From the NCBI GenBank assembly GCA_000004985.1, contig GG738860.1: 64,000 bases of DNA; one strand, written 5' to 3'. Below the pieces are notes generated by a model, which worked only from the letters and a program-made list of their open reading frames with translations, was not told the origin of the DNA and ran no database searches. Source of the stretch: Naegleria gruberi. Taxonomy: Eukaryota. Numbering within the stretch: the stretch's first letter is position 1; each line of letters begins with the position of its first letter. Made by a program: the position numbers and the translations under genes. Below are positions 6,856 through 53,853 of this stretch, piece after piece.

Positions 6856-9597
6856 ATGAACATTCAGGATTTCAGAAACTTGATGGATGTGCTCTCGTCC
6901 AACGATAATCAAGTTCGTCAAAACGCTGAAACCCATCTTGCCAATCTTAAGAATAATGACTTGGTATGTTTTTCATTTAATTGTTTTTATTAATCATTTT
7001 AACGTATTTTATTCTCCTCATCACCAACAATAATTTTTCTAGCCTAAATTTATGATTCTGTTAGTAACAGAACTTGCTGATGAAGCTAGACCAAACCATC
7101 TCAGACAATTGGCCGGTCTCCAACTTAAGAACCTTTTAGAATCCAAAGACTCACAAACAAAACATGCTTTAGAACAACAATGGTCCAGACAAGACGAAGA
7201 AACCAAAAATCAAATTAGAAATCAAGTTTTAGTAACACTCCACTCCACATCACAAGAAGCTAGAAAGACTGCTGCTCAAGTCCTCGCCGAATTTGCTTCT
7301 GTAGACTTGGTGCACAATCAATGGCTGAATGTTATTGAAACTGTCCTTAAAAACATTACCGAACCTTCTACACCTTTTGGTATTCAATCTAGCTTGATGG
7401 CCATTGGTTATCTGTGTGATATGTGTAGAGCCCCAGTTTTAAAGCACCAAACAAACCAAATTCTTACAGCTGTTATTCAAGGTATGAGAGAATCAGCAAA
7501 CAACGATATCAAATTTGCTGCCACACAAGCCTTGTTGAATTGTCTTGTTTTTGTTGAAGAAAACTTTTCAAGAGATGTAAGTATTATTATTATTTGAATC
7601 TTATTAATTCTAACTTTATATAGTCTGAAAGAGATTATATTATGCAAACCGTATGTGCATCAACCCAACTTCCAGACCCAAGAATTAGAGAAGTCGCTTT
7701 TGAATGTTTAGTTAAAATCGGATATTTGTACTATGATAAATTGTCACCATACATGGAAGCCATTTTTGGTGTAAGTAGTAATACTATTTTAACAAATTGA
7801 TATTAATTTATTAAAATATAGATCACAACCAAGGCTTTAACTGACCCTAATGAACAACAAGAAGTCCAATTACAAGCTATTGAATTCTGGACATCATTGG
7901 CTGAAACTGAAGCAATTATTCGTGAAGAAATTGATACTGCAATGGAAAATGATACCGAACCAATTAGACAAAGTTTCAATATTATTCTCCAAGCTCTTGC
8001 ACCATTAGTTGAACTTATGACTAAATGTCTTACAAGACAAGAAGAATATCAAGAAGATGGTGATATGTGTGTCAGTAATTATGCTTCAAATTGTATTGCT
8101 GCTATGGCCACTGTTGCTCAAGAAACAATTGTTGACCAAATTATGCCATTCGTTTCATCAAATATTAATAATCCAGATTGGCACTTTAAGGAAGCTGCTA
8201 CTTTGGCATTTTCTGCAATTTTGGATGGTCCAAGAAGAGGTGAAAGAATGAATGAACTTATCAACTCTGCCCTTCCATTCATTATGAGTCATGTTAATGA
8301 TGCAAACACTCTTGTCAAAGATACTTCAGTTTTTGCTCTTGGTAGAATTGCTGAATTCCATCCAGATCCATTGGTTGAAAATCATTTGGAAAATGTCCTC
8401 AAGACTCTTACAATTGCCTTCCAAGATGAAGCTCGTATTTGTAGTAAGGCTTGTTGGACTATTTTGCACATTGCAGAAGCTTTCTCAACTGATGATGATA
8501 GAGCTTCTTATCCACTTTCACAATACTTTAAGATTTTGGCTGAAATGCTCTTACAAGCTACTCTTAGACAAGATGCTTCTGAAAGCAATTTGAGAATCAA
8601 TGCTTATGAAGCTTTATCTGCTCTTGTTCACAGTGCTGCTAGAGATACCTATGAAATTTTGTCACACATTGTTGTTGAATTGTTGAATAGACTTGAACAA
8701 ACTCTTAACCACAGCCAAACTGAAGAAATCTGCTTGATTCAAGGTTTGATGTGTGGTGCTCTTCAAGTTTCTGCTAGAAAGCTCGAATTTAGAATTGTTC
8801 CAACTGCTGATAGAATCATGACCTTCTTGTTGAGAATCTTTGAATCTAAAAGCGCTAATGTTCATGAAGAAGCCTTCCTTGCTGTTGGTGCTGTCGCTGC
8901 TGCCCTTTCTAATGAATTCGACAGATATATGCCTCACTTTTTACCATTCTTATTGACTGGTTTGCAAACATTCCAATACGAACAAATCTGTCTTATCTGT
9001 GTCAACGTTATTGGTGATTTATGTATTGCTTTGAGAGACAAGCTTGCTTCTTATACTGATGCAATCATGGAAGTTCTTTTGAAGAATTTGCAAAACTCTG
9101 AATTGCAAAGAGATGTCAAACCAAACATTATTGCCTCTTTTGGTGATATTGCTCTTGCCATTGGTGTCAGATTTGAAAAATACATGAATTATGTTGGTAC
9201 TGTTTTGAGACAAGCTTGTGAAGCTCATGTTGATGCCACCAACGATGAAATGATTGATTATCTTAATCTTTTGAGAGAAAATATTTTCGAAGCCTATGTT
9301 GGTATTTTACTTGGCTTCAAGAAGGAAAATCCACAACTCTTTATTCCATATGTTGAATCAGTGTTAACCTTTGTCAAGATTGTCTATGAAGATCAAAATA
9401 CTGACCAACCTGTTTTCAATGCTGCTGTTTCTATCGTTAGTGACTTGGCTAATGTTTACGGTGTTGCCATCAAAGGTCCTATGCAACAAGAATTTATTAG
9501 AAATCTTGTCGAAGATGCAGTCAATTCAGCTGAATCAGAGACAAGAAAGATTGGTAATAAGGCTAAGAAGAACTTGAAGAAGATTACTCTCCTCTAA
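6856..9597 (+). CDS. KAP95: Importin subunit beta-1 (karyopherin-beta/Kap95), 4 exons: 6856-6963, 7043-7576, 7624-7770, 7822-9597
   Basis: The N-terminus MNIQDFRNLMDVLSSNDNQVRQNAETHLANL is the classic importin-beta N-terminal (IBN_N) domain. HEAT repeats run throughout. Introns are GTATGT/GTAAGT...TAG with phases consistent. Encodes about 860 aa. Confidence 0.9.
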
Positions 9598-45834: not shown

Positions 45835-48800
45835 TTATACAATAACAGGAGGAAGTCTCTCTCTTGAAATTGGACGAGACAGAGCTCGCTTCTCTGCCTC
45901 ATATTCTTCTATTTTCTCTCTAAGGGATTGAATCTTGTGTCGTTGCATTTCGATTTCCTTCAAAGCTTGTTCTAATGATGTAATACCACCAAGGTCCTTT
46001 AGTTCCAAAGATGATGAAGTTATATCGGTGCTCTTCTTTCCAATCTTGGACTCGAGCTCCTTGTCTTTAAGTTTTTGCTTTAGAGATCTAACTTCCTTTC
46101 TCAGGTCATTAATTTCCTTGATGAGGACAACATTTTCATTCATGATTCTCTTATTATCTGACTTGGAGGTTTCTGTTGCTTTAACAAGCTTCTTCTTGAG
46201 TGATTCGACTGTTTTTTCGAGGTAGGATCTTTGTCTTTCATATTCCTTTTGAATGTCAAAGTCCATTTCTTGAGTAGTAATCTTTTCAGAGACGTAGGTT
46301 TGGTAAAGCTTGGTAACCTCTTCTTTAAGCTCCTTTGGCTCTTGAATTAATTGTGCAACCTTGTAAATATCTGCACGAATTCTCTTCAATAGAGTGTCAT
46401 TATCTTTGACTTTAAAGTTCAGTCTTTGAATTTCCTTGACTCTTCCATCAATCTTGAGTTCGAGATCCTTGATTGAGAGAATTAATCTATCATTCTTCTC
46501 CTTAGCCTTTTCCAATTCTTTTCTCATCTTCTTGGATTGCTTTCTTAAACTGGTAATTTCTTCCTTACTTGGTTTGATTTGTTCTTGGAGAGTTGAAATC
46601 TTGTATTCTAAAACAAATCTGAATTTTTCAAGTTCTTGGTTTTGTCTCTTCAACTTGAAAATTCTCTTTTCCTTGTCAATAATGGTTTCTTCTCTTTCCT
46701 TATTTTCCTCACTCATCTTTTGAATATCCTCTTGATATTGCTTATTGAGATTTTCTGCTCTTTGCTTCTTTTCTTCCAACTTTTCAATAAGTTCTAGTTT
46801 TTGTTTCAAAGTCTTTTGTAAGGCAATAAATCTGTCATTCCACTTGTTAGCTTCACTCTTGGCTTCATTGTAGCTGTCGTTCATCTTTAACAACTTCTTT
46901 TCATACATTTCTTTCAAGATCTTGATTTCCTTATCTTGATCCTCTTCCATTTGATTTTTAATTTCGGAAAATTTCTTGTCCAACTCGACCTTCTCATCTT
47001 GTAATGTAACAATAGATCCATCTTTTCTCTTAATTTCATCTTCATATTCTTCCGTAATATCTGTGAGCTCTCTCATGTGCATTTCCTCCTTATTCTTGGA
47101 ATCATCTAGGATTTGCTTCTTCTCCTTCTCTCTGTCTCTGTTGAGTTCGGAAATTTGTTCAAGAGAATTGTGCAATCTCTCGTTAAAGTCTTGTTCCAGA
47201 GCTTTGATTTTTTCTCTGTGTTTTTCTATCAACTCATCGATTTTCTTCTCGTACTCATCTGTTACACTTTTCTTCTCTTGCAAAATACTTTGAATTTCCT
47301 CTTGTTTCTTTGTAAGTTCAAGATTGAAGCTTTTTGCTTGTTCTCTGAGAGCATTATTGAATTCAATTTCCTTTTTCTTTTGCTCGTATTCATTGTCTGA
47401 CTTTAATTCTGCAACTTTTGCTTGAAGCTCAGCAATTGTGGTATTCTTTTCTTCCCATTCTGCTCCTGAAATCAAAATTTCTTCCGAATATTTTGTTTCC
47501 TTCTTAGTTTTACCTCCATCTCTGTCTCTTATTTCCACAATACCCAGCATACCATCTTCACCTGAACTGAATAAGAAAGAATCATCCCAAGCTTTAGAAA
47601 TTCTTGTCACAGGACCTGAGTGCAAGTATAGTTTGTCTTCTATATACTCCAGATTTGGAAATGAATGCACAGTAATAGCACCAGTCTCTAGACCACCAAA
47701 TATCATCTTTAATCCTTCAGAGTACTCCATACAAACCAATGTATTATCTCCCAAATCATATTCTGTTTGTGGATTACCTTCACTGAAGCCCTTAATCTTG
47801 TTATCTGATCCAGTAACAAAAATACTCTTTCCGTCTGTGGCGACAGATGTGTATCCAACATTCTTATTAGTATGGTGAATGGTTCTCTTCTCAGTTTTTA
47901 CAACATATTCGTACACAGCACCATCCATACCAACACTCAGTACTCTAGTATCATCATCAGTCCATTGAAGAGCTCTGATTTTACCATTGTGGCCCCTGAG
48001 GGCAGATATTAATTGGAGAGTGTAGGTATTGTAAACGTTGATTACGTTACCGTGAGCTGCTGCAAAGTAATGACCACCATTACTGAACTTTACCTCACCA
48101 CAATTTCTTACCAAGAAAGATTTCTGCTCTCTAATATCATCTCCCAAAATATCCATAAATCTCAGTTTATCTTGGAAACCAACAACCAAGTGCAAACCAC
48201 TAGGGTGAATTGCTATTGAGTAGGCCTCGGCTGGGAATTGTTTTACAATATTCAGTGTATTATCCAAGTAGTTCCATACTCTGACAGTCTTATCTGTACT
48301 GCAGGTCGCAATAATTGGCTTTCTAATAGCAGTATCCATTCCCGTTATGGCCTTTGAGTGGAATGGAATTGTGAGATATTCAAATTTAATGTCATCTTCC
48401 TTTTGTAAAATATCAGAACTACTGATATTCAAAGTAAATATTTGAGCTGAACTTGTTGAAAGGACCAAGTTTTCATTTGAAGGACTCAAATTAAAATTGA
48501 GAATTTTGTGATCGAGATAGGTTTCGCTCAGTTCCTTATATTGAGTGCTATTCATAACTCGTAAAGTCTTTGATCTTGAATACATTTCCTTTTCATCGGC
48601 CGATTTTTCAAATATTGAAACAACTCCATTCTCACCTCCACATACAAACCCAGTTCCATAAGGAATGAGTGCTGTTATACTAAGTCCATCTGATGGAGAT
48701 GAGGGTAAAATAAATTTAAATTCATTCTTTTCAACGAAAAATAAATCTCCGTTAGCATTTGAAACAACTAACTTCTCTTCATCTAACCAGGTATGAGACA

Positions 48801-49467
48801 GATAAGGCTCATGATCTCTTTTGCCAATACCGTCTGTCACAACTTTGAGTTTTTCTCTATCATCTAGGGTTAATAATTTAAATACACCATTACCAGTAAC
48901 ACAAATAGTTTTGCTATCTGGACTAATTGAACATTGAAAGACTGGATCTCCATCCACTGAAGATGTACAAATCGTATCAACTATCCTAGTTTTACCTTCC
49001 ATAGACCACAAAACTAAATTATATTCTGGACCTCCTCCTTGGGCTACCAAATATTTACCATCCAATGAGAAAGCCATACAAACAAATTCATGAGATCCAA
49101 CACCTGGATGAGAAATCGTCTTTTTGACTGTGTATGTTGTTGTTTCATAGAGTTTAATAAGAGGTGGGTTTTTTTTGAGGTCAGTGATCTTTACAGTTGA
49201 TGAAAGTGGTTTTGTTTTTTCTGCAACAGCCAAATATTTTCTATTAGGTGCTAGACAAAGAGCTGATATTCCTTCCGTATTATCGGACCCTGTTTTAATC
49301 TTCCTCACTCCATTTGTTTGATGAAAAACTAGGCATCTACCTGAAGGGTAAACGACACATGTATCGTTGACATTATCTCTAATGTACCAGATATTATTTT
49401 TTACCTTTGCATTAAGACCAAACACATTTTTAAGTGAGAGGATGTGGTTTTGAAATGGTTCAGTCAT
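45835..49467 (-). CDS. WD40-repeat (N-terminal ~650 aa, likely double propeller) plus long coiled-coil (C-terminal ~550 aa) protein, with a CFAP57/WDR65-like architecture
   Basis: Multiple WD-like blades (…GHNGKIRALQWTDDDTRVLSVGMDGAVYEY…, …ATCSTDKTVRVWNY…). The C-terminal half is continuous E/K/L/Q heptads. Single 1210-aa ORF. Confidence 0.5.
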   Translation of the reverse strand: MTEPFQNHILSLKNVFGLNAKVKNNIWYIRDNVNDTCVVYPSGRCLVFHQTNGVRKIKTGSDNTEGISALCLAPNRKYLAVAEKTKPLSSTVKITDLKKNPPLIKLYETTTYTVKKTISHPGVGSHEFVCMAFSLDGKYLVAQGGGPEYNLVLWSMEGKTRIVDTICTSSVDGDPVFQCSISPDSKTICVTGNGVFKLLTLDDREKLKVVTDGIGKRDHEPYLSHTWLDEEKLVVSNANGDLFFVEKNEFKFILPSSPSDGLSITALIPYGTGFVCGGENGVVSIFEKSADEKEMYSRSKTLRVMNSTQYKELSETYLDHKILNFNLSPSNENLVLSTSSAQIFTLNISSSDILQKEDDIKFEYLTIPFHSKAITGMDTAIRKPIIATCSTDKTVRVWNYLDNTLNIVKQFPAEAYSIAIHPSGLHLVVGFQDKLRFMDILGDDIREQKSFLVRNCGEVKFSNGGHYFAAAHGNVINVYNTYTLQLISALRGHNGKIRALQWTDDDTRVLSVGMDGAVYEYVVKTEKRTIHHTNKNVGYTSVATDGKSIFVTGSDNKIKGFSEGNPQTEYDLGDNTLVCMEYSEGLKMIFGGLETGAITVHSFPNLEYIEDKLYLHSGPVTRISKAWDDSFLFSSGEDGMLGIVEIRDRDGGKTKKETKYSEEILISGAEWEEKNTTIAELQAKVAELKSDNEYEQKKKEIEFNNALREQAKSFNLELTKKQEEIQSILQEKKSVTDEYEKKIDELIEKHREKIKALEQDFNERLHNSLEQISELNRDREKEKKQILDDSKNKEEMHMRELTDITEEYEDEIKRKDGSIVTLQDEKVELDKKFSEIKNQMEEDQDKEIKILKEMYEKKLLKMNDSYNEAKSEANKWNDRFIALQKTLKQKLELIEKLEEKKQRAENLNKQYQEDIQKMSEENKEREETIIDKEKRIFKLKRQNQELEKFRFVLEYKISTLQEQIKPSKEEITSLRKQSKKMRKELEKAKEKNDRLILSIKDLELKIDGRVKEIQRLNFKVKDNDTLLKRIRADIYKVAQLIQEPKELKEEVTKLYQTYVSEKITTQEMDFDIQKEYERQRSYLEKTVESLKKKLVKATETSKSDNKRIMNENVVLIKEINDLRKEVRSLKQKLKDKELESKIGKKSTDITSSSLELKDLGGITSLEQALKEIEMQRHKIQSLREKIEEYEAEKRALSRPISRERLPPVIV

Positions 49468-50049: not shown

Positions 50050-52470
50050 ATGGATGCCCGTGTTGCAGTAACGAAAGGTACGTTAAGAGAGAGATGAATT
50101 TAAGAATATTAAGGCCTCTGTTCATACATCATCAATATAATACCATTTTAATATCGGACTTGAATAAATAGATGATTTTGAGTATGGACAAATATTGGGT
50201 GAAGGTGCTTTTGGCCAAGTTCGTTTGTGTGTCCATAAAGCAACAGAACTTCAATACGCAGCTAAAGTATTGAAGAAGGAAAAACTTATTAAGGCCAAAC
50301 AAACGAAATATGTCAAATCAGAGAAGGAAATATTATTGGAGATGGATCATCCTAACATTTCAAAATTGTGTTATACCTTCACTGATGAAAAGAAGTTGTA
50401 CTTTGTGTTGGAACTTATTTCTGGAGGAGAATTATTTGAGTGTATTATAAAGAGCAATGTAGCAAATGATAATAAGGAATTGAAAAAAGTTGCTCAATTT
50501 TACATGGCTCAAATGTTGGAAGCACTGATCTATATTCACAGTCTTAATATTTGTCACAGAGATCTTAAACCCGAAAATCTAATGCTTACAGGATCTGGTA
50601 ATTTAAAATTGGTGGATTTTGGTATTGCAAAGAAAATTGATAGACCAGGTCCGAATACATTCTGGTAAGTTAAAATATGAAAATCTTGAAAATCTTAATT
50701 TCCAATAGTGGTACTGCTGAATATTTGGCGTAAGTTTTCTTATCAACTTGATTATATTGATGATTTCTCAATAGACCCGAAGTTGTCAGTAATAATGAAT
50801 ATGGTATTATGGTAGATTGGTGGTCTTATGGTTGTATTATTTACGAATTATTTTGTGGAAAGAGTCCTTTTTACAGCTCTAGTATGGCTGTAACTTGTCA
50901 AAAGATTGTTGATAGAGACATCTATTGGCCAAAGACAATGCCACCAGATGCCAAGGATTTAATTAATGGACTTCTCACTACAGACCCAGAAAAGAGAATT
51001 GGAGGTCCTGAATTAAGAAAGCATCCATTTTTCAAAGGAATTGATTGGAAGAATTTAAACAAGGCTGACCCACCTCTGGTTCCAGATCTTTTGTTCAATG
51101 ATGAAGATAGAGGTGTTGGTATTAAAATGTCCATGTTTGAACCTAGAGTGGATCAGGAAGACGTCATGATAAATGCTCACGTTTTCAAATCGAGATCAAG
51201 CAGTAAAGGATCAACGCAAGATGCAATCAAGAGAAGCAACTTGCTCAGAAAAATGTACCCTCAATTGTGTGCTCTCCCAGAGAGACCAAGACCAATCAAT
51301 TCAAGAATTATTCAAAACTCTGAAAATGTTCCAAAATCCAATGATAAGGTAGAAGAGGAGGAGGTAGATGATAGGGGTGATACTCAATCGGAATGTACTA
51401 GTGTCAATGAGGTCAGTAAGAAGGTCGTTATGATTCAAAATGCTGTCGGTTTGAAAACTCCTGTTATCAGGATTGCATTTGGAGAAGGTGACAAGATGGC
51501 TTGTAGTAGTAGTTTCCAAGCAAAAACATTTGGAATTGGAATTGACAGTGAATCTAATGTCATTTTCAATGAATATAAGAATTTATCAACTGTATCCACA
51601 TGTAATTACTTGGAATATTCTCCAAATGGTGAAACACTTGCCTTCGACATGCAAAGACATATTGGTTTGTTGGACTTGAAGAATCCAAAGAAAAAACCAA
51701 GACAATTGGTGGGGCATTCCCTTCCAATTACAAAGGTTTCTTGGCATCCAAAGAGCCACATGTTGGCTGCCGGAGGAAGAGATAACCTGGTGTACTTGTG
51801 GAATGTTGACAGCTCCAAACCAAAGCTTGAGGCTCAAATGGATTCACACAAATCATATATTTCAGATCTTCAATTCCATGCAAAAGATCATCTACTTGCC
51901 AGTGGAAGTGGAGATTTCAAAGTTGTATTCTACGACATTCAAAGTCAGAGAATTGTACAAAAGTACAGTTACCATGAAGATGCAATTCTTGGTGTGAGGT
52001 GGAATCCTAAATTCCCTGACATTTTTGTTTCCTGGTCTTTGGATAGAAGACTAATCTTCTCCGACCGCAGAACTTTCAAACCTATTAAGGTTCTAGCTCA
52101 TAATAGACCTGTGATTCATGCTCAATGGTCACCTGATGGATCAATGCTTGCCACCTGCAGCAAAGATTCCATTAGAATTTGGTCCTATCCATCAATTACC
52201 TCCTCTTTCGTCTACACCAATTCTGAAAGTCTTCCTGGTGAACATCTCTCTTTCGAATGTAATAGCAATTATTTGGCAGTATTGAAATGCAGAGATGATA
52301 CCTCTCCTTCAGTCATTGATACCTCTTCCTTTTCTTTTGTTTCTCCAAATCCACATCCTCAAAACTCACACAAACTCCCAATTACTAGTCTGCAATGGAG
52401 TAATAACAGACCATTCCTTGCCACTGGTTCCTATGATAAGTCTGTTATTTTGTGGGGTGTTGATGAATAA
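50050..52470 (+). CDS. PDK1-like AGC-family Ser/Thr protein kinase fused to a C-terminal WD40 beta-propeller, 4 exons (50050-50077, 50172-50664, 50709-50729, 50775-52470)
   Basis: Kinase motifs are GEGAFGQV, AAKVLKK, HRDLKPEN, DFG and NTFCGTAEYLAPE, the last split across a 21-nt micro-exon. The kinase aligns closely to PDK1 (DFxxGxILGEGxF...YF.L....GEL...HRDLKPEN...DFG...F.GTA.Y..PE...D.W..GCIIY.L..G..PF). WD40 repeats follow in the same ORF (…LAAGGRDNLVYLWNV…, …LASGSGDFKVVFYDIQS…, …LATGSYDKSVILWGV…). Confidence 0.8.
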
Positions 52471-52587: not shown

Positions 52588-53853
52588 TTAGAATACACCA
52601 AATTTATATTGAGGAGGTATTGGAATGTCGTAACCCAATTCCTTCGCAGCTCTGATTGGCCAATATGGATCACCCAAATCCTTTCTTCCAATAAATACTA
52701 AATCAGCTTTTCCTTCTGTCAATATTTGATTGGCTTGTACTGGTTCAGTAATTTTACCAACAGCTGCCACAGGCATTACTTGTCTAACCCTTTCTGCATA
52801 TTTCACTTGATACATTGGAAATGCCATGAGAGCTTGGGATAGTAATCTTGATGAATTACCTCCTGATGAACAGTCAATTATATCAACTCCCAAATCTTTC
52901 AAAATTTCAGCTAACCTCACACTATCCTCAATATCCCAACCATCACTCACATACTCATCACATGATATTCTTACAAATAGAGGCATTGTCTCTGGAATGC
53001 AACTTCTTACTCGACTAACAATTTCAGTTAGAATTCTTATACGATTCTCAAAAGAACCACCAAATTTGTCTTTTCTCTTATTAGATGTTGGTGATAAGAA
53101 GGAATTAATCATATAACCATGAGCTGCATGTATCTCAATCACATCAAAACCAGCCAAGACAGCTCTCTTAGCAGCAGCTACAAAGTCTTCAATCAATTCT
53201 TCCACCTCATCTTCAGTCAACTCTCTCGGAACTCTATGTGATTCATCAAATGCAATTGGAGAAGGTCCAACCACTTCCCATCCTCCTTCTTCATCACTTA
53301 ATGCAGTTCTTCCTAGGGCTTCCCACAATGCACGTGTTGAACCTTTTCTCCCAGAATGAGCCAACTGAATACCAATATGTCCACCTTGTTCATGAGCTAA
53401 ATCCGTAATCTGTTTCAACATTTCCACATGTTCGTCCTTGTAAATTCCCAAACAATGAGGAGTAATTCTTCCAATTTCAGAAACAGCAGATGCCTCCACT
53501 ATAAACAAGCCAGCACCACCTACCACTCTACTGCCAATATGTTGCACATGCCACAGATTAGCAAAACCATCCTTGCTAGAATAGGTACACATTGGAGAAA
53601 CTACAATTCTATTCTTCAAAGTCAATCCTCTAATTGTGTAAGGTTGAAATAACATTGGAGTGTCTGAGGAGGGCATGATTGCCTTTTTGGCTTCTGCCAA
53701 TCCTGTTAGAGCTTGAATAATAACACCAACCCAGTTGACCATGATGACGAAGATGTGAAGAGAATTTTTTCTAATAGTTTTTTCATGCTTGCTGAATATT
53801 TGTTGGACTTGAACAAAAGTGGTGCGAATTAATGCGAAGAACACCCCGTCCAA
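52588..53853 (-). CDS. NADH:flavin oxidoreductase / NADPH dehydrogenase, Old Yellow Enzyme family of the YqjM (bacterial/class III) type. The true start is probably an internal Met (about 53742 or 53664)
   Basis: ...LFQPYTIRGLTLKNRIVVSPMCTYSS... has the C/Y of YqjM-type OYE, against P/T in classical OYE. Other motifs are HSGRKGS and IEIHAAHGYMINSFLSP. The C-terminal region binds the FMN phosphate (GRKDLGDPYW). Confidence 0.8.
   Translation of the reverse strand: MDGVFFALIRTTFVQVQQIFSKHEKTIRKNSLHIFVIMVNWVGVIIQALTGLAEAKKAIMPSSDTPMLFQPYTIRGLTLKNRIVVSPMCTYSSKDGFANLWHVQHIGSRVVGGAGLFIVEASAVSEIGRITPHCLGIYKDEHVEMLKQITDLAHEQGGHIGIQLAHSGRKGSTRALWEALGRTALSDEEGGWEVVGPSPIAFDESHRVPRELTEDEVEELIEDFVAAAKRAVLAGFDVIEIHAAHGYMINSFLSPTSNKRKDKFGGSFENRIRILTEIVSRVRSCIPETMPLFVRISCDEYVSDGWDIEDSVRLAEILKDLGVDIIDCSSGGNSSRLLSQALMAFPMYQVKYAERVRQVMPVAAVGKITEPVQANQILTEGKADLVFIGRKDLGDPYWPIRAAKELGYDIPIPPQYKFGVF

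Follow-up and report, generated by a model that had tools for sequence, protein, structure and literature searches.

In a 64,000-nucleotide stretch of Naegleria gruberi DNA (GenBank assembly GCA_000004985.1, contig GG738860.1; hereafter, the window), we characterized the plus-strand gene at positions 50050-52470. Comparison with related sequences confirmed that this is one real gene, predicted to encode a 745-residue protein composed of a PDK1-type AGC kinase domain, a linker, and an eight-bladed WD40 propeller. Most AGC kinases have PDK1 as their upstream activator, and PDK1 is linked to phosphoinositide signaling by its PH domain. We consider it reasonably probable (about 0.6) that the protein is a PDK1-like kinase in which protein docking by the propeller replaces PH-mediated lipid targeting, a function that we infer from the comparisons described below.

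The kinase and the propeller are encoded by one four-exon gene

The spliced coding sequence of the gene spans 2238 nt in four exons and is in frame throughout, giving 745 amino acids and a TAA stop. Exon 1 (50050-50077) carries the start codon at 50050 and encodes MDARVAVTK and one further base, the first of the D10 codon. Two codons 5' of this ATG there is an in-frame TAA. Exon 2 (50172-50664), which encodes the kinase N-lobe, the catalytic loop, the DFG motif, and the start of the activation loop (to NTF and the TG of the Cys174 codon), shows 100% identity with N. gruberi XP_002678752.1. It is followed by a 21-nt micro-exon (exon 3, 50709-50729) and by exon 4 (50775-52470), which supplies the rest of the kinase C-lobe, the linker, and the entire propeller, up to the TAA stop codon at 52468-52470. 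The three introns measure 94, 44, and 45 nt (50078-50171, 50665-50708, and 50730-50774), and every one has the form GTA(C/A)GT...TAG, with GTACGT in intron 1 and GTAAGT in introns 2 and 3. Intron 1 interrupts the gene after the lysine codon plus one base, the same placement as in N. lovaniensis (L001) and Willaertia (L002). Exon 4 is a single uninterrupted frame that aligns end to end with the orthologs, and because it holds about 565 open codons in DNA of only 34% G+C, it is most probably not a product of chance. An earlier reading of this DNA, made without database searches (the sequence-only reading), had described these exons and their open reading frame (ORF); its description agrees with our finding that the joined exons are in frame and that Pfam detects both Pkinase and WD40 in their product.

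The public model for the gene in N. gruberi NEG-M (XP_002678752.1 / EFC46008.1) is annotated as "predicted protein, partial", is 267 aa long, and covers the kinase only. It is identical to residues 10-275 of the 745-residue model, micro-exon included, except for one residue at an artificial start. This public model (P0122; 50172-51060 in the window) has its start within intron 1, where an artificial Ile is the first residue, and ends in ...GIDWKNL. The remaining 470 residues, comprising linker and propeller, lie in the same open exon but outside XP_002678752.1, and the searches made brought up no N. gruberi model of the propeller by itself. We propose that the entry should be lengthened from its partial 267 aa to 745 aa.

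The same order of kinase, linker, and propeller is found in relatives. It is present in a complete transcript-derived ORF of Percolomonas cosmopolitus (P0004, MMETSP0759, 869 aa), in the mRNA-based model ANDGO_05995 (789 aa) of the jakobid Andalucia godoyi, and in the fusion gene of Acrasis, which has a single short intron. An environmental locus (L004, 155-2683) encodes the whole 842-aa fusion protein in one intronless ORF, and the annotated proteins of N. fowleri, N. lovaniensis, and Willaertia also carry the fusion. Because a conserved motif, described below, sits between the kinase and the propeller, the chance juxtaposition of two genes is disfavored. The sequence-only reading had placed the WD40 region in the same ORF as the kinase and in lieu of the PH domain; this arrangement is kept in the orthologs, the complete transcript and the intronless ORF among them.

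A 21-nt micro-exon encodes the core of the activation segment

Read with its flanking bases, the micro-exon has the letters TG/T GGT ACT GCT GAA TAT TTG GC/A and encodes C-G-T-A-E-Y-L-A within NTFCGTAEYLAPE. It supplies the last base of the Cys174 codon, the six residues G-T-A-E-Y-L, and two bases of the Ala181 codon, which together form the activation-segment core, (C)GTAEYL(A), in the activation segment and P+1 loop. When the micro-exon is omitted, the TG at the end of exon 2 is joined to an A and the frame meets a TGA stop.

An exon of 21 nt occupies the same place in N. lovaniensis (L001, 6730-6750) and in Willaertia magna (L002, 6609-6629); the introns on its two sides measure 88 and 78 nt in the former and 41 and 38 nt in the latter. 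The letters of the three micro-exons, TGGTACTGCTGAATATTTGGC in N. gruberi, TGGAACTGCAGAGTACTTGGC in N. lovaniensis, and TGGAACTGCTGAATATTTAGC in W. magna, vary at synonymous third positions only. The corresponding residues are encoded without interruption in Acrasis kona and in the intronless locus of the environmental ortholog (L004), and among the loci examined the micro-exon is restricted to Naegleria and Willaertia. Since its length and place are kept across genera, its changes are exclusively synonymous, and its residues are uninterrupted in Acrasis and L004, we regard the micro-exon as real. The call of a 21-nt micro-exon at 50709-50729 in the sequence-only reading is therefore upheld, both by this conservation and by the TGA that skipping would create.

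The kinase domain clusters with the PDK1 family

The protein kinase domain (residues 13-267; 50180-51033, spanning introns 2 and 3) matches Pfam Pkinase over residues 13-267 at E = 1.7e-75, and its catalytic motifs GEGAFG, K41, HRDLKPEN, DFG, and APE are intact. All of its top matches among solved structures are AKT, SGK, PKA, PDK1, or PKC, as expected of an AGC kinase. The putative activation-loop phospho-acceptor, Thr172 (codon 50657-50659), aligns with Ser241 of PDK1 and Thr308 of AKT. With these intact motifs and a T-loop Thr172 in a TFCGT context, the kinase core appears to be catalytically competent.

For classification, we used 59 AGC kinase domains drawn from the search matches and labeled by precomputed domain architecture. 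The PDK1 label was given by the PF14593 PH_3 domain (Rigifila, Dentiscutata, and one MMETSP sequence) and the AKT label by PH plus Pkinase_C; the remaining classes comprised kinases linked to PX, TH1, or C2 domains, proteins named PKA, and RSK. Human PDK1, AKT1, and PKA-Cα sequences were added. Scored on the same profile, PDK1 and AKT1 differed by no more than 0.5 bit from the matching PDB chains, and PKA-Cα by about 3 bits at most, which supports the sequences used. Neighbor-joining trees (Kimura distance, 300 bootstraps) were built from three column sets, namely all columns, columns 10-250, and columns with at least 95% occupancy. We found that the fusion family was monophyletic at 98-100% bootstrap and that it was sister to the PH_3-bearing PDK1 group at 94-98% in the three column sets. 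Moreover, the hidden Markov model (HMM) of the PDK1 group was top-scoring for all eight family members tested (8/8), with margins of 7-49 bits.

Several signatures point the same way. HRDLKPEN, a K..K.KYV pattern in αB-αC, and DFG[IT]AK are common to the family and the PDK1 group and were not found in the sampled AKT, PKA, SGK, and RSK sequences; the other AGC kinases sampled have YRD instead of HRD, and H-T where the family has K..K.KYV. The GTAEY motif is also common to the family and the PDK1 group, and two sampled AKT/SGK-like sequences carry it too. At the positions of the human PDK1-interacting fragment (PIF) pocket, the family has K for K115, L for I118, I for I119, T for V124, V for V127, and L for L155; the hydrophobic core is conserved except at V124, and other AGC kinases have a pocket of a similar kind. 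The equivalents of the phosphate-site residues R131, T148, and Q150 of the human protein are K, T/S, and T/S/A.

The family also resembles PDK1 in what its members lack. The hydrophobic motif F-x-x-[FYW]-[STDE]-[FYW] is absent from 13 of 14 family sequences, and the single match, FEPYSY in P0003, looks like chance. The linkers give no Pfam match at all at E <= 10, Pkinase_C included, and PF00433 is missing from the precomputed domains of all orthologs; it is present in the RSK and AKT matches. We considered the sequence MSMFEP of Naegleria as a candidate hydrophobic motif and rejected it: outside Naegleria, Willaertia, and the environmental P0003 it is not conserved, and no family-wide hydrophobic-motif pattern emerged. 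No PH domain (PF14593) was found in the protein, where residues 397-745 form the WD40 propeller instead. This does not exclude membership in the PDK1 family, since Pkh1/2, moss PDK1, and SPARK are also without a PH domain.

Together, these results support the clustering of the kinase domain with the PDK1 family, with the caveats of a distance method, limited sampling, and ambiguous raw scores. The PDK1-like assignment made by the sequence-only reading is thus backed by the tree (94-98%), the group HMM (8/8), the signatures, and the missing hydrophobic motif and Pkinase_C.

A conserved linker motif and a predicted eight-bladed propeller follow the kinase domain

The linker (residues 268-396; 51034-51420) is mostly predicted to be disordered and contains neither a hydrophobic motif nor Pkinase_C. 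It keeps PPxxP (P281 and P284), the retained C-lobe tether. Farther downstream, residues 332-355 (51226-51297) form a family-specific motif, IKRSNLLRKMYPQLCALPERPRPI, which is predicted to be helical. Its consensus, [KR][RS][SQ]xx[LM]RxMYPxLxxLPxRPxP, is found in all of the family sequences (14/14); a narrower form of the motif reads RRSxMLRxMYPxLxxLPxRP.

The WD40 β-propeller occupies residues 397-745 (51421-52467). Pfam places WD40 repeats at about residues 440-745, with PF00400 in four stretches at E = 1.5e-32. For structure prediction, we used the N. fowleri ortholog (AlphaFold2, with a 10-sequence alignment) and residues 264-745 of the protein encoded in the window. In the N. fowleri model, the kinase domain leads into a linker that is largely disordered (292-420), and a propeller of 32 strands follows with high confidence (421-770). 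The model of residues 264-745 has a predicted template modeling score (pTM) of 0.71 and eight four-stranded blades, with predicted local distance difference test (pLDDT) values mostly of 85-95, and the best structural matches to the propeller models were 8-bladed WD40 proteins. The PF00400 matches, the approximately 32 modeled strands, and these structural matches agree on a closed WD40 propeller. The sequence-only reading had counted five to seven blades, a number that has to be revised to the eight predicted by the AlphaFold2 models and structural matches.

The helix of the linker (residues 327-347, about 51211-51273) reached a pLDDT of about 46-48 in the full-length model and of 57-78 when it was modeled with the propeller and without the kinase. 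This gives a weak hint that the helix may pack or dock on the propeller.

In sequence, the propeller is a generic WD40 domain. The best sequence matches are WDR5, TBL1XR1, WDR24, and a repeat protein of Nostoc; none of the family-specific Pfam propeller models reached its cut-off. No binding partner can be inferred for the propeller. A bacterial origin of the propeller was considered and set aside, as PkwA and the Nostoc WD40 protein match it through no more than generic WD repeats.

The fusion family is found in Heterolobosea, a jakobid, and environmental sequences

We searched with the single protein and with a 13-sequence full-length profile, and scanned 1.84 billion representatives exhaustively with an HMM. 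The nearest full-length relatives are a hypothetical protein of N. lovaniensis (77% identity) and then the protein of Willaertia magna (62%); the N. fowleri ortholog, XP_044560435.1, is a full model of 770 aa. The fusion architecture was found only in Heterolobosea (three Naegleria species, Willaertia, Acrasis, and Percolomonas), in Andalucia godoyi, and in about nine environmental clusters (P0003, P0008-10, P0137, P0147, P0153, P0157, and perhaps P0282). Heterolobosea and jakobids both belong to the clade Discoba. Other matches were kinase-only proteins, multi-propeller proteins, or bacterial Hanks-kinase-WD40 proteins that do not have the linker motif. This distribution is a floor, as divergent orthologs scoring below about 430 bits would escape detection: multi-propeller proteins and bacterial kinase-WD40 proteins dominated the exhaustive full-length scan, in which no more than about seven representatives aligned in one stretch from end to end. 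A search with a linker-only profile returned two matches and missed known orthologs, probably through failure of the word prefilter, and is uninformative on the range of the motif.

The orthologs are named "hypothetical", "TPK1", or "PKA type 3" / "cAMP-dependent protein kinase type 3" in the databases, and all are uncharacterized. In the literature searched, we found no description of an AGC-WD40 kinase, no Naegleria kinome, and no PDK1 classification for Naegleria. A PDK1-type kinase joined with an eight-bladed WD40 propeller, with a conserved motif in the linker, therefore appears to be undescribed, and the sequences themselves are already public. The sequence-only reading had called the architecture non-standard, which is apt for this pairing of kinase type and propeller; the architecture is not unique to the locus, however, but belongs to a small family in Discoba.

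A comparable distribution is known for the Gsp/Gcp proteins of the mitochondrial type II secretion system, which are common to heteroloboseans, jakobids, malawimonads, and hemimastigotes and of which Gcp1-3 are WD40 proteins (PMC8134430). The similar distribution and the WD40 repeats prompted us to consider a link with the Gcp set, which we rejected, since the fusion protein is not in that set (PMC8134430): the main text of that study names no kinase, and its supplements do not list XP_002678752, EFC46008, or ANDGO_05995.

Some individual sequences deserve comment. The annotated N. lovaniensis ortholog (734 aa; L001 = PYSW02000015.1) ends in a non-homologous tail, PDLSSMLRYSRTMLTSSQ, and its last blade lies just downstream in another frame (L001, about 8422-8562), with 87% identity to N. 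fowleri. This suggests that the N. lovaniensis model is truncated by a 1-nt indel or an assembly error. The environmental ortholog P0008 (L004, scaffold HAWL17-1 ... scaffold_8393) is intronless and lies in 51% G+C DNA, and its gene was predicted with a prokaryotic gene finder; contigs related to L004 reach 34 kb. As a guess, its source might be a discoban eukaryote with few introns. The high-scoring matches also included P0150 (755 aa), which has two PKA-like AGC kinase domains in tandem and is unrelated to the fusion family.

Neighboring genes

On the minus strand of the window, positions 45835-49467 form a single ORF of 1210 aa. It has two EML-type β-propellers at about residues 60-640, after which comes a long, charged C-terminal stretch (about 550 residues) with the look of a coiled coil. 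In architecture, this protein may resemble flagellar WD-repeat proteins of the CFAP57/WDR65 type. On the other side, positions 52588-53853 of the minus strand encode a 421-aa protein of the NADH:flavin oxidoreductase / Old Yellow Enzyme family (PF00724, E = 1e-78). This gene is convergent with the kinase gene, and their stop codons are about 118 nt apart; the 3' untranslated regions of the two genes must therefore be very short or overlap.

Discussion

If the protein acts as a PDK1-like kinase with a docking propeller, the kinase would be activated by phosphorylation of its T-loop, probably by trans(-auto)phosphorylation, as in PDK1. Other AGC kinases would dock their hydrophobic motifs in a free PIF-pocket and would then be phosphorylated on their T-loops; because the kinase is without a hydrophobic motif of its own, the pocket is, by analogy with PDK1, probably unoccupied and open to such partners. 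Binding of peptides or proteins by the propeller would supply localization, or the selection of substrates or scaffolds, instead of a PH domain that binds phosphatidylinositol-3,4,5-trisphosphate (PIP3). The propeller might possibly take over the autoinhibitory role of the PH domain too, and the conserved linker helix may serve as an intramolecular regulatory or docking element. Such rewired targeting is plausible because the PH-less relatives of PDK1 (yeast Pkh, moss PDK1, and Toxoplasma SPARK) tolerate it.

A number of observations count against this proposal or limit its reach. The N. gruberi gene is known from genomic sequence alone, and transcript support comes from relatives. The claim of the sequence-only reading that the kinase domain aligns best to PDK1 fails when taken literally: single-sequence bit scores against solved structures were 235 for AKT1, 219 for SGK1, 211 for yeast TPK1, and 205 for PDK1, and a profile of seven family kinase domains gave 303 bits for TPK1, 286 for PDK1, 281 for AKT, 279 for SGK, and 278 for PKA. 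The tree is distance-based only, its taxa were chosen from matches to the family profile, and it includes no PKC, PKG, NDR, MAST, or GRK. At the PIF-pocket, V124 is replaced by T and Q150 by T/S/A, and the T-loop TFCGT is the consensus of PDK1 substrates, as opposed to SFVGT in PDK1. The N. fowleri model has a pTM of 0.49 with no confident contact between kinase and propeller or kinase and linker, which leaves the orientation of the domains undefined. Finally, if Naegleria also has a PDK1 made of a kinase plus a PH domain, the fusion gene would be a paralog, possibly with a different job.

The ambiguous scores invite a different explanation, in which the protein works downstream, as an effector AGC kinase akin to PKA, AKT, or SGK that is activated by a separate PDK1, the propeller is a substrate or scaffold adaptor, and the grouping with PDK1 is an artifact of neighbor joining and limited sampling. 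AKT1 does top the single-sequence structure matches and yeast TPK1 the family profile; annotators named orthologs TPK1 and "cAMP-dependent protein kinase type 3"; and TFCGT fits the motif that PDK1 phosphorylates in its substrates. Yet the grouping with PDK1 reaches 94-98% in each of three column sets, the PDK1 HMM is best for 8/8 members, HRD, KYV, and DFGxAK are common to PDK1 only, and the protein does not have the hydrophobic motif and AGC tail of AKT-, SGK-, S6K-, and PKA-type effectors. We hold an effector kinase to be possible but, on this evidence, doubtful.

Alternatively, the propeller could be mainly an intramolecular regulator, acting through autoinhibition or dimerization (compare the C-terminal WD40 domain of LRRK2), rather than a targeting module. 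The PH domain of PDK1 is itself autoinhibitory, and the rise in pLDDT of the linker helix to 57-78 with the propeller alone (from 46-48) hints at a linker-propeller contact. No confident interdomain contact was predicted (pTM 0.49), however, and a regulatory propeller would be compatible with a PDK1-like kinase that docks proteins, not exclusive of it; as the main role of the propeller we think it improbable. There is, lastly, scarcely any chance that the gene model is an artifact, with adjacent kinase and WD40 genes wrongly joined or a spurious micro-exon. Such an error would fit a reference annotation limited to a 267-aa kinase fragment and a gene model derived from genomic sequence alone, but the exon at 50775-52470 spans C-lobe, linker, and propeller without a stop, the linker motif is kept in all 14 relatives, and a complete transcript from Percolomonas and an ORF without introns both carry the fusion. 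The micro-exon, for its part, is kept with synonymous-only changes, and without it the frame meets a TGA.

The fusion protein can be set beside several known systems. It shares with the PDK1/PDPK1 family (human PDK1, fungal Pkh1/2 and Ksg1, and Dictyostelium PdkA/B) the grouping by tree and HMM, HRD, KYV in αC, DFGxAK, and GTAEY, as well as a Ser/Thr in the T-loop, a conserved core of the PIF-pocket, and the lack of its own hydrophobic motif or AGC tail. It differs from that family in having no PH_3 but an eight-bladed WD40 domain and a family linker motif, in its T-loop (TFCGT rather than SFVGT), and in the substituted pocket residues V124 and Q150. The PH-less PDK1-like kinases, namely Toxoplasma SPARK, yeast Pkh, and moss PDK1 (bioRxiv 10.1101/2021.09.23.461611), provide a precedent for PDK1-type domains whose phosphoinositide targeting was lost and rewired. 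In these kinases, though, the PH domain is merely missing or short motifs are present (MKxGFL in SPARK), and none has a folded propeller.

LRRK2 and other ROCO kinases also combine, within a single polypeptide, a kinase and, C-terminal to it, a WD40 propeller. The LRRK2 kinase, however, is TKL-like and not AGC, a ROC-COR GTPase and repeats lie upstream of it, and its propeller is seven-bladed; in the fusion protein, only nine residues precede the kinase domain, and Pfam gave no match to Roc or COR. Bacterial Ser/Thr kinase-WD40 proteins of the PkwA type have an N-terminal kinase and a C-terminal WD40 region as well, and appeared as lower-scoring matches (about 280-400 bits, versus more than 1000 for orthologs). 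Unlike the fusion protein, they are Hanks-type and not AGC kinases, their propellers are usually 7-bladed or multiple, and they have no linker motif; nothing in the comparison with them points to horizontal transfer. Known eight-bladed WD40 proteins (Notchless/Rsa4, ODA16/DAW1, TBL1XR1, Cdc4/Fbw7, and Sif2) share only 13-21% identity with the fusion propeller. Pfam gives no specific family assignment for it, and no shared partner can be inferred.

A conserved lineage that pairs a PDK1-type kinase with a propeller would be a natural experiment in the targeting of a hub kinase, and it would add a new architecture to the PH-less relatives of PDK1 such as Pkh and SPARK. At the level of gene annotation, methods that predict Naegleria genes can be usefully tested on the conserved 21-nt micro-exon. 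Going further, the fusion could be the only PDK1 ortholog of Heterolobosea and jakobids, a proposal that we advance tentatively and regard as somewhat unlikely. Were it true, the master T-loop kinase of the AGC family would be recruited in these organisms through an eight-bladed propeller, by docking to proteins or phosphopeptides, and not through PIP3. The link between PI3K and AGC kinases would then be wired differently in lineages that include the pathogen N. fowleri, with an architecture that has no human counterpart. As no human protein has the same architecture, the N. fowleri ortholog, XP_044560435.1, is a conceivable selective drug target.

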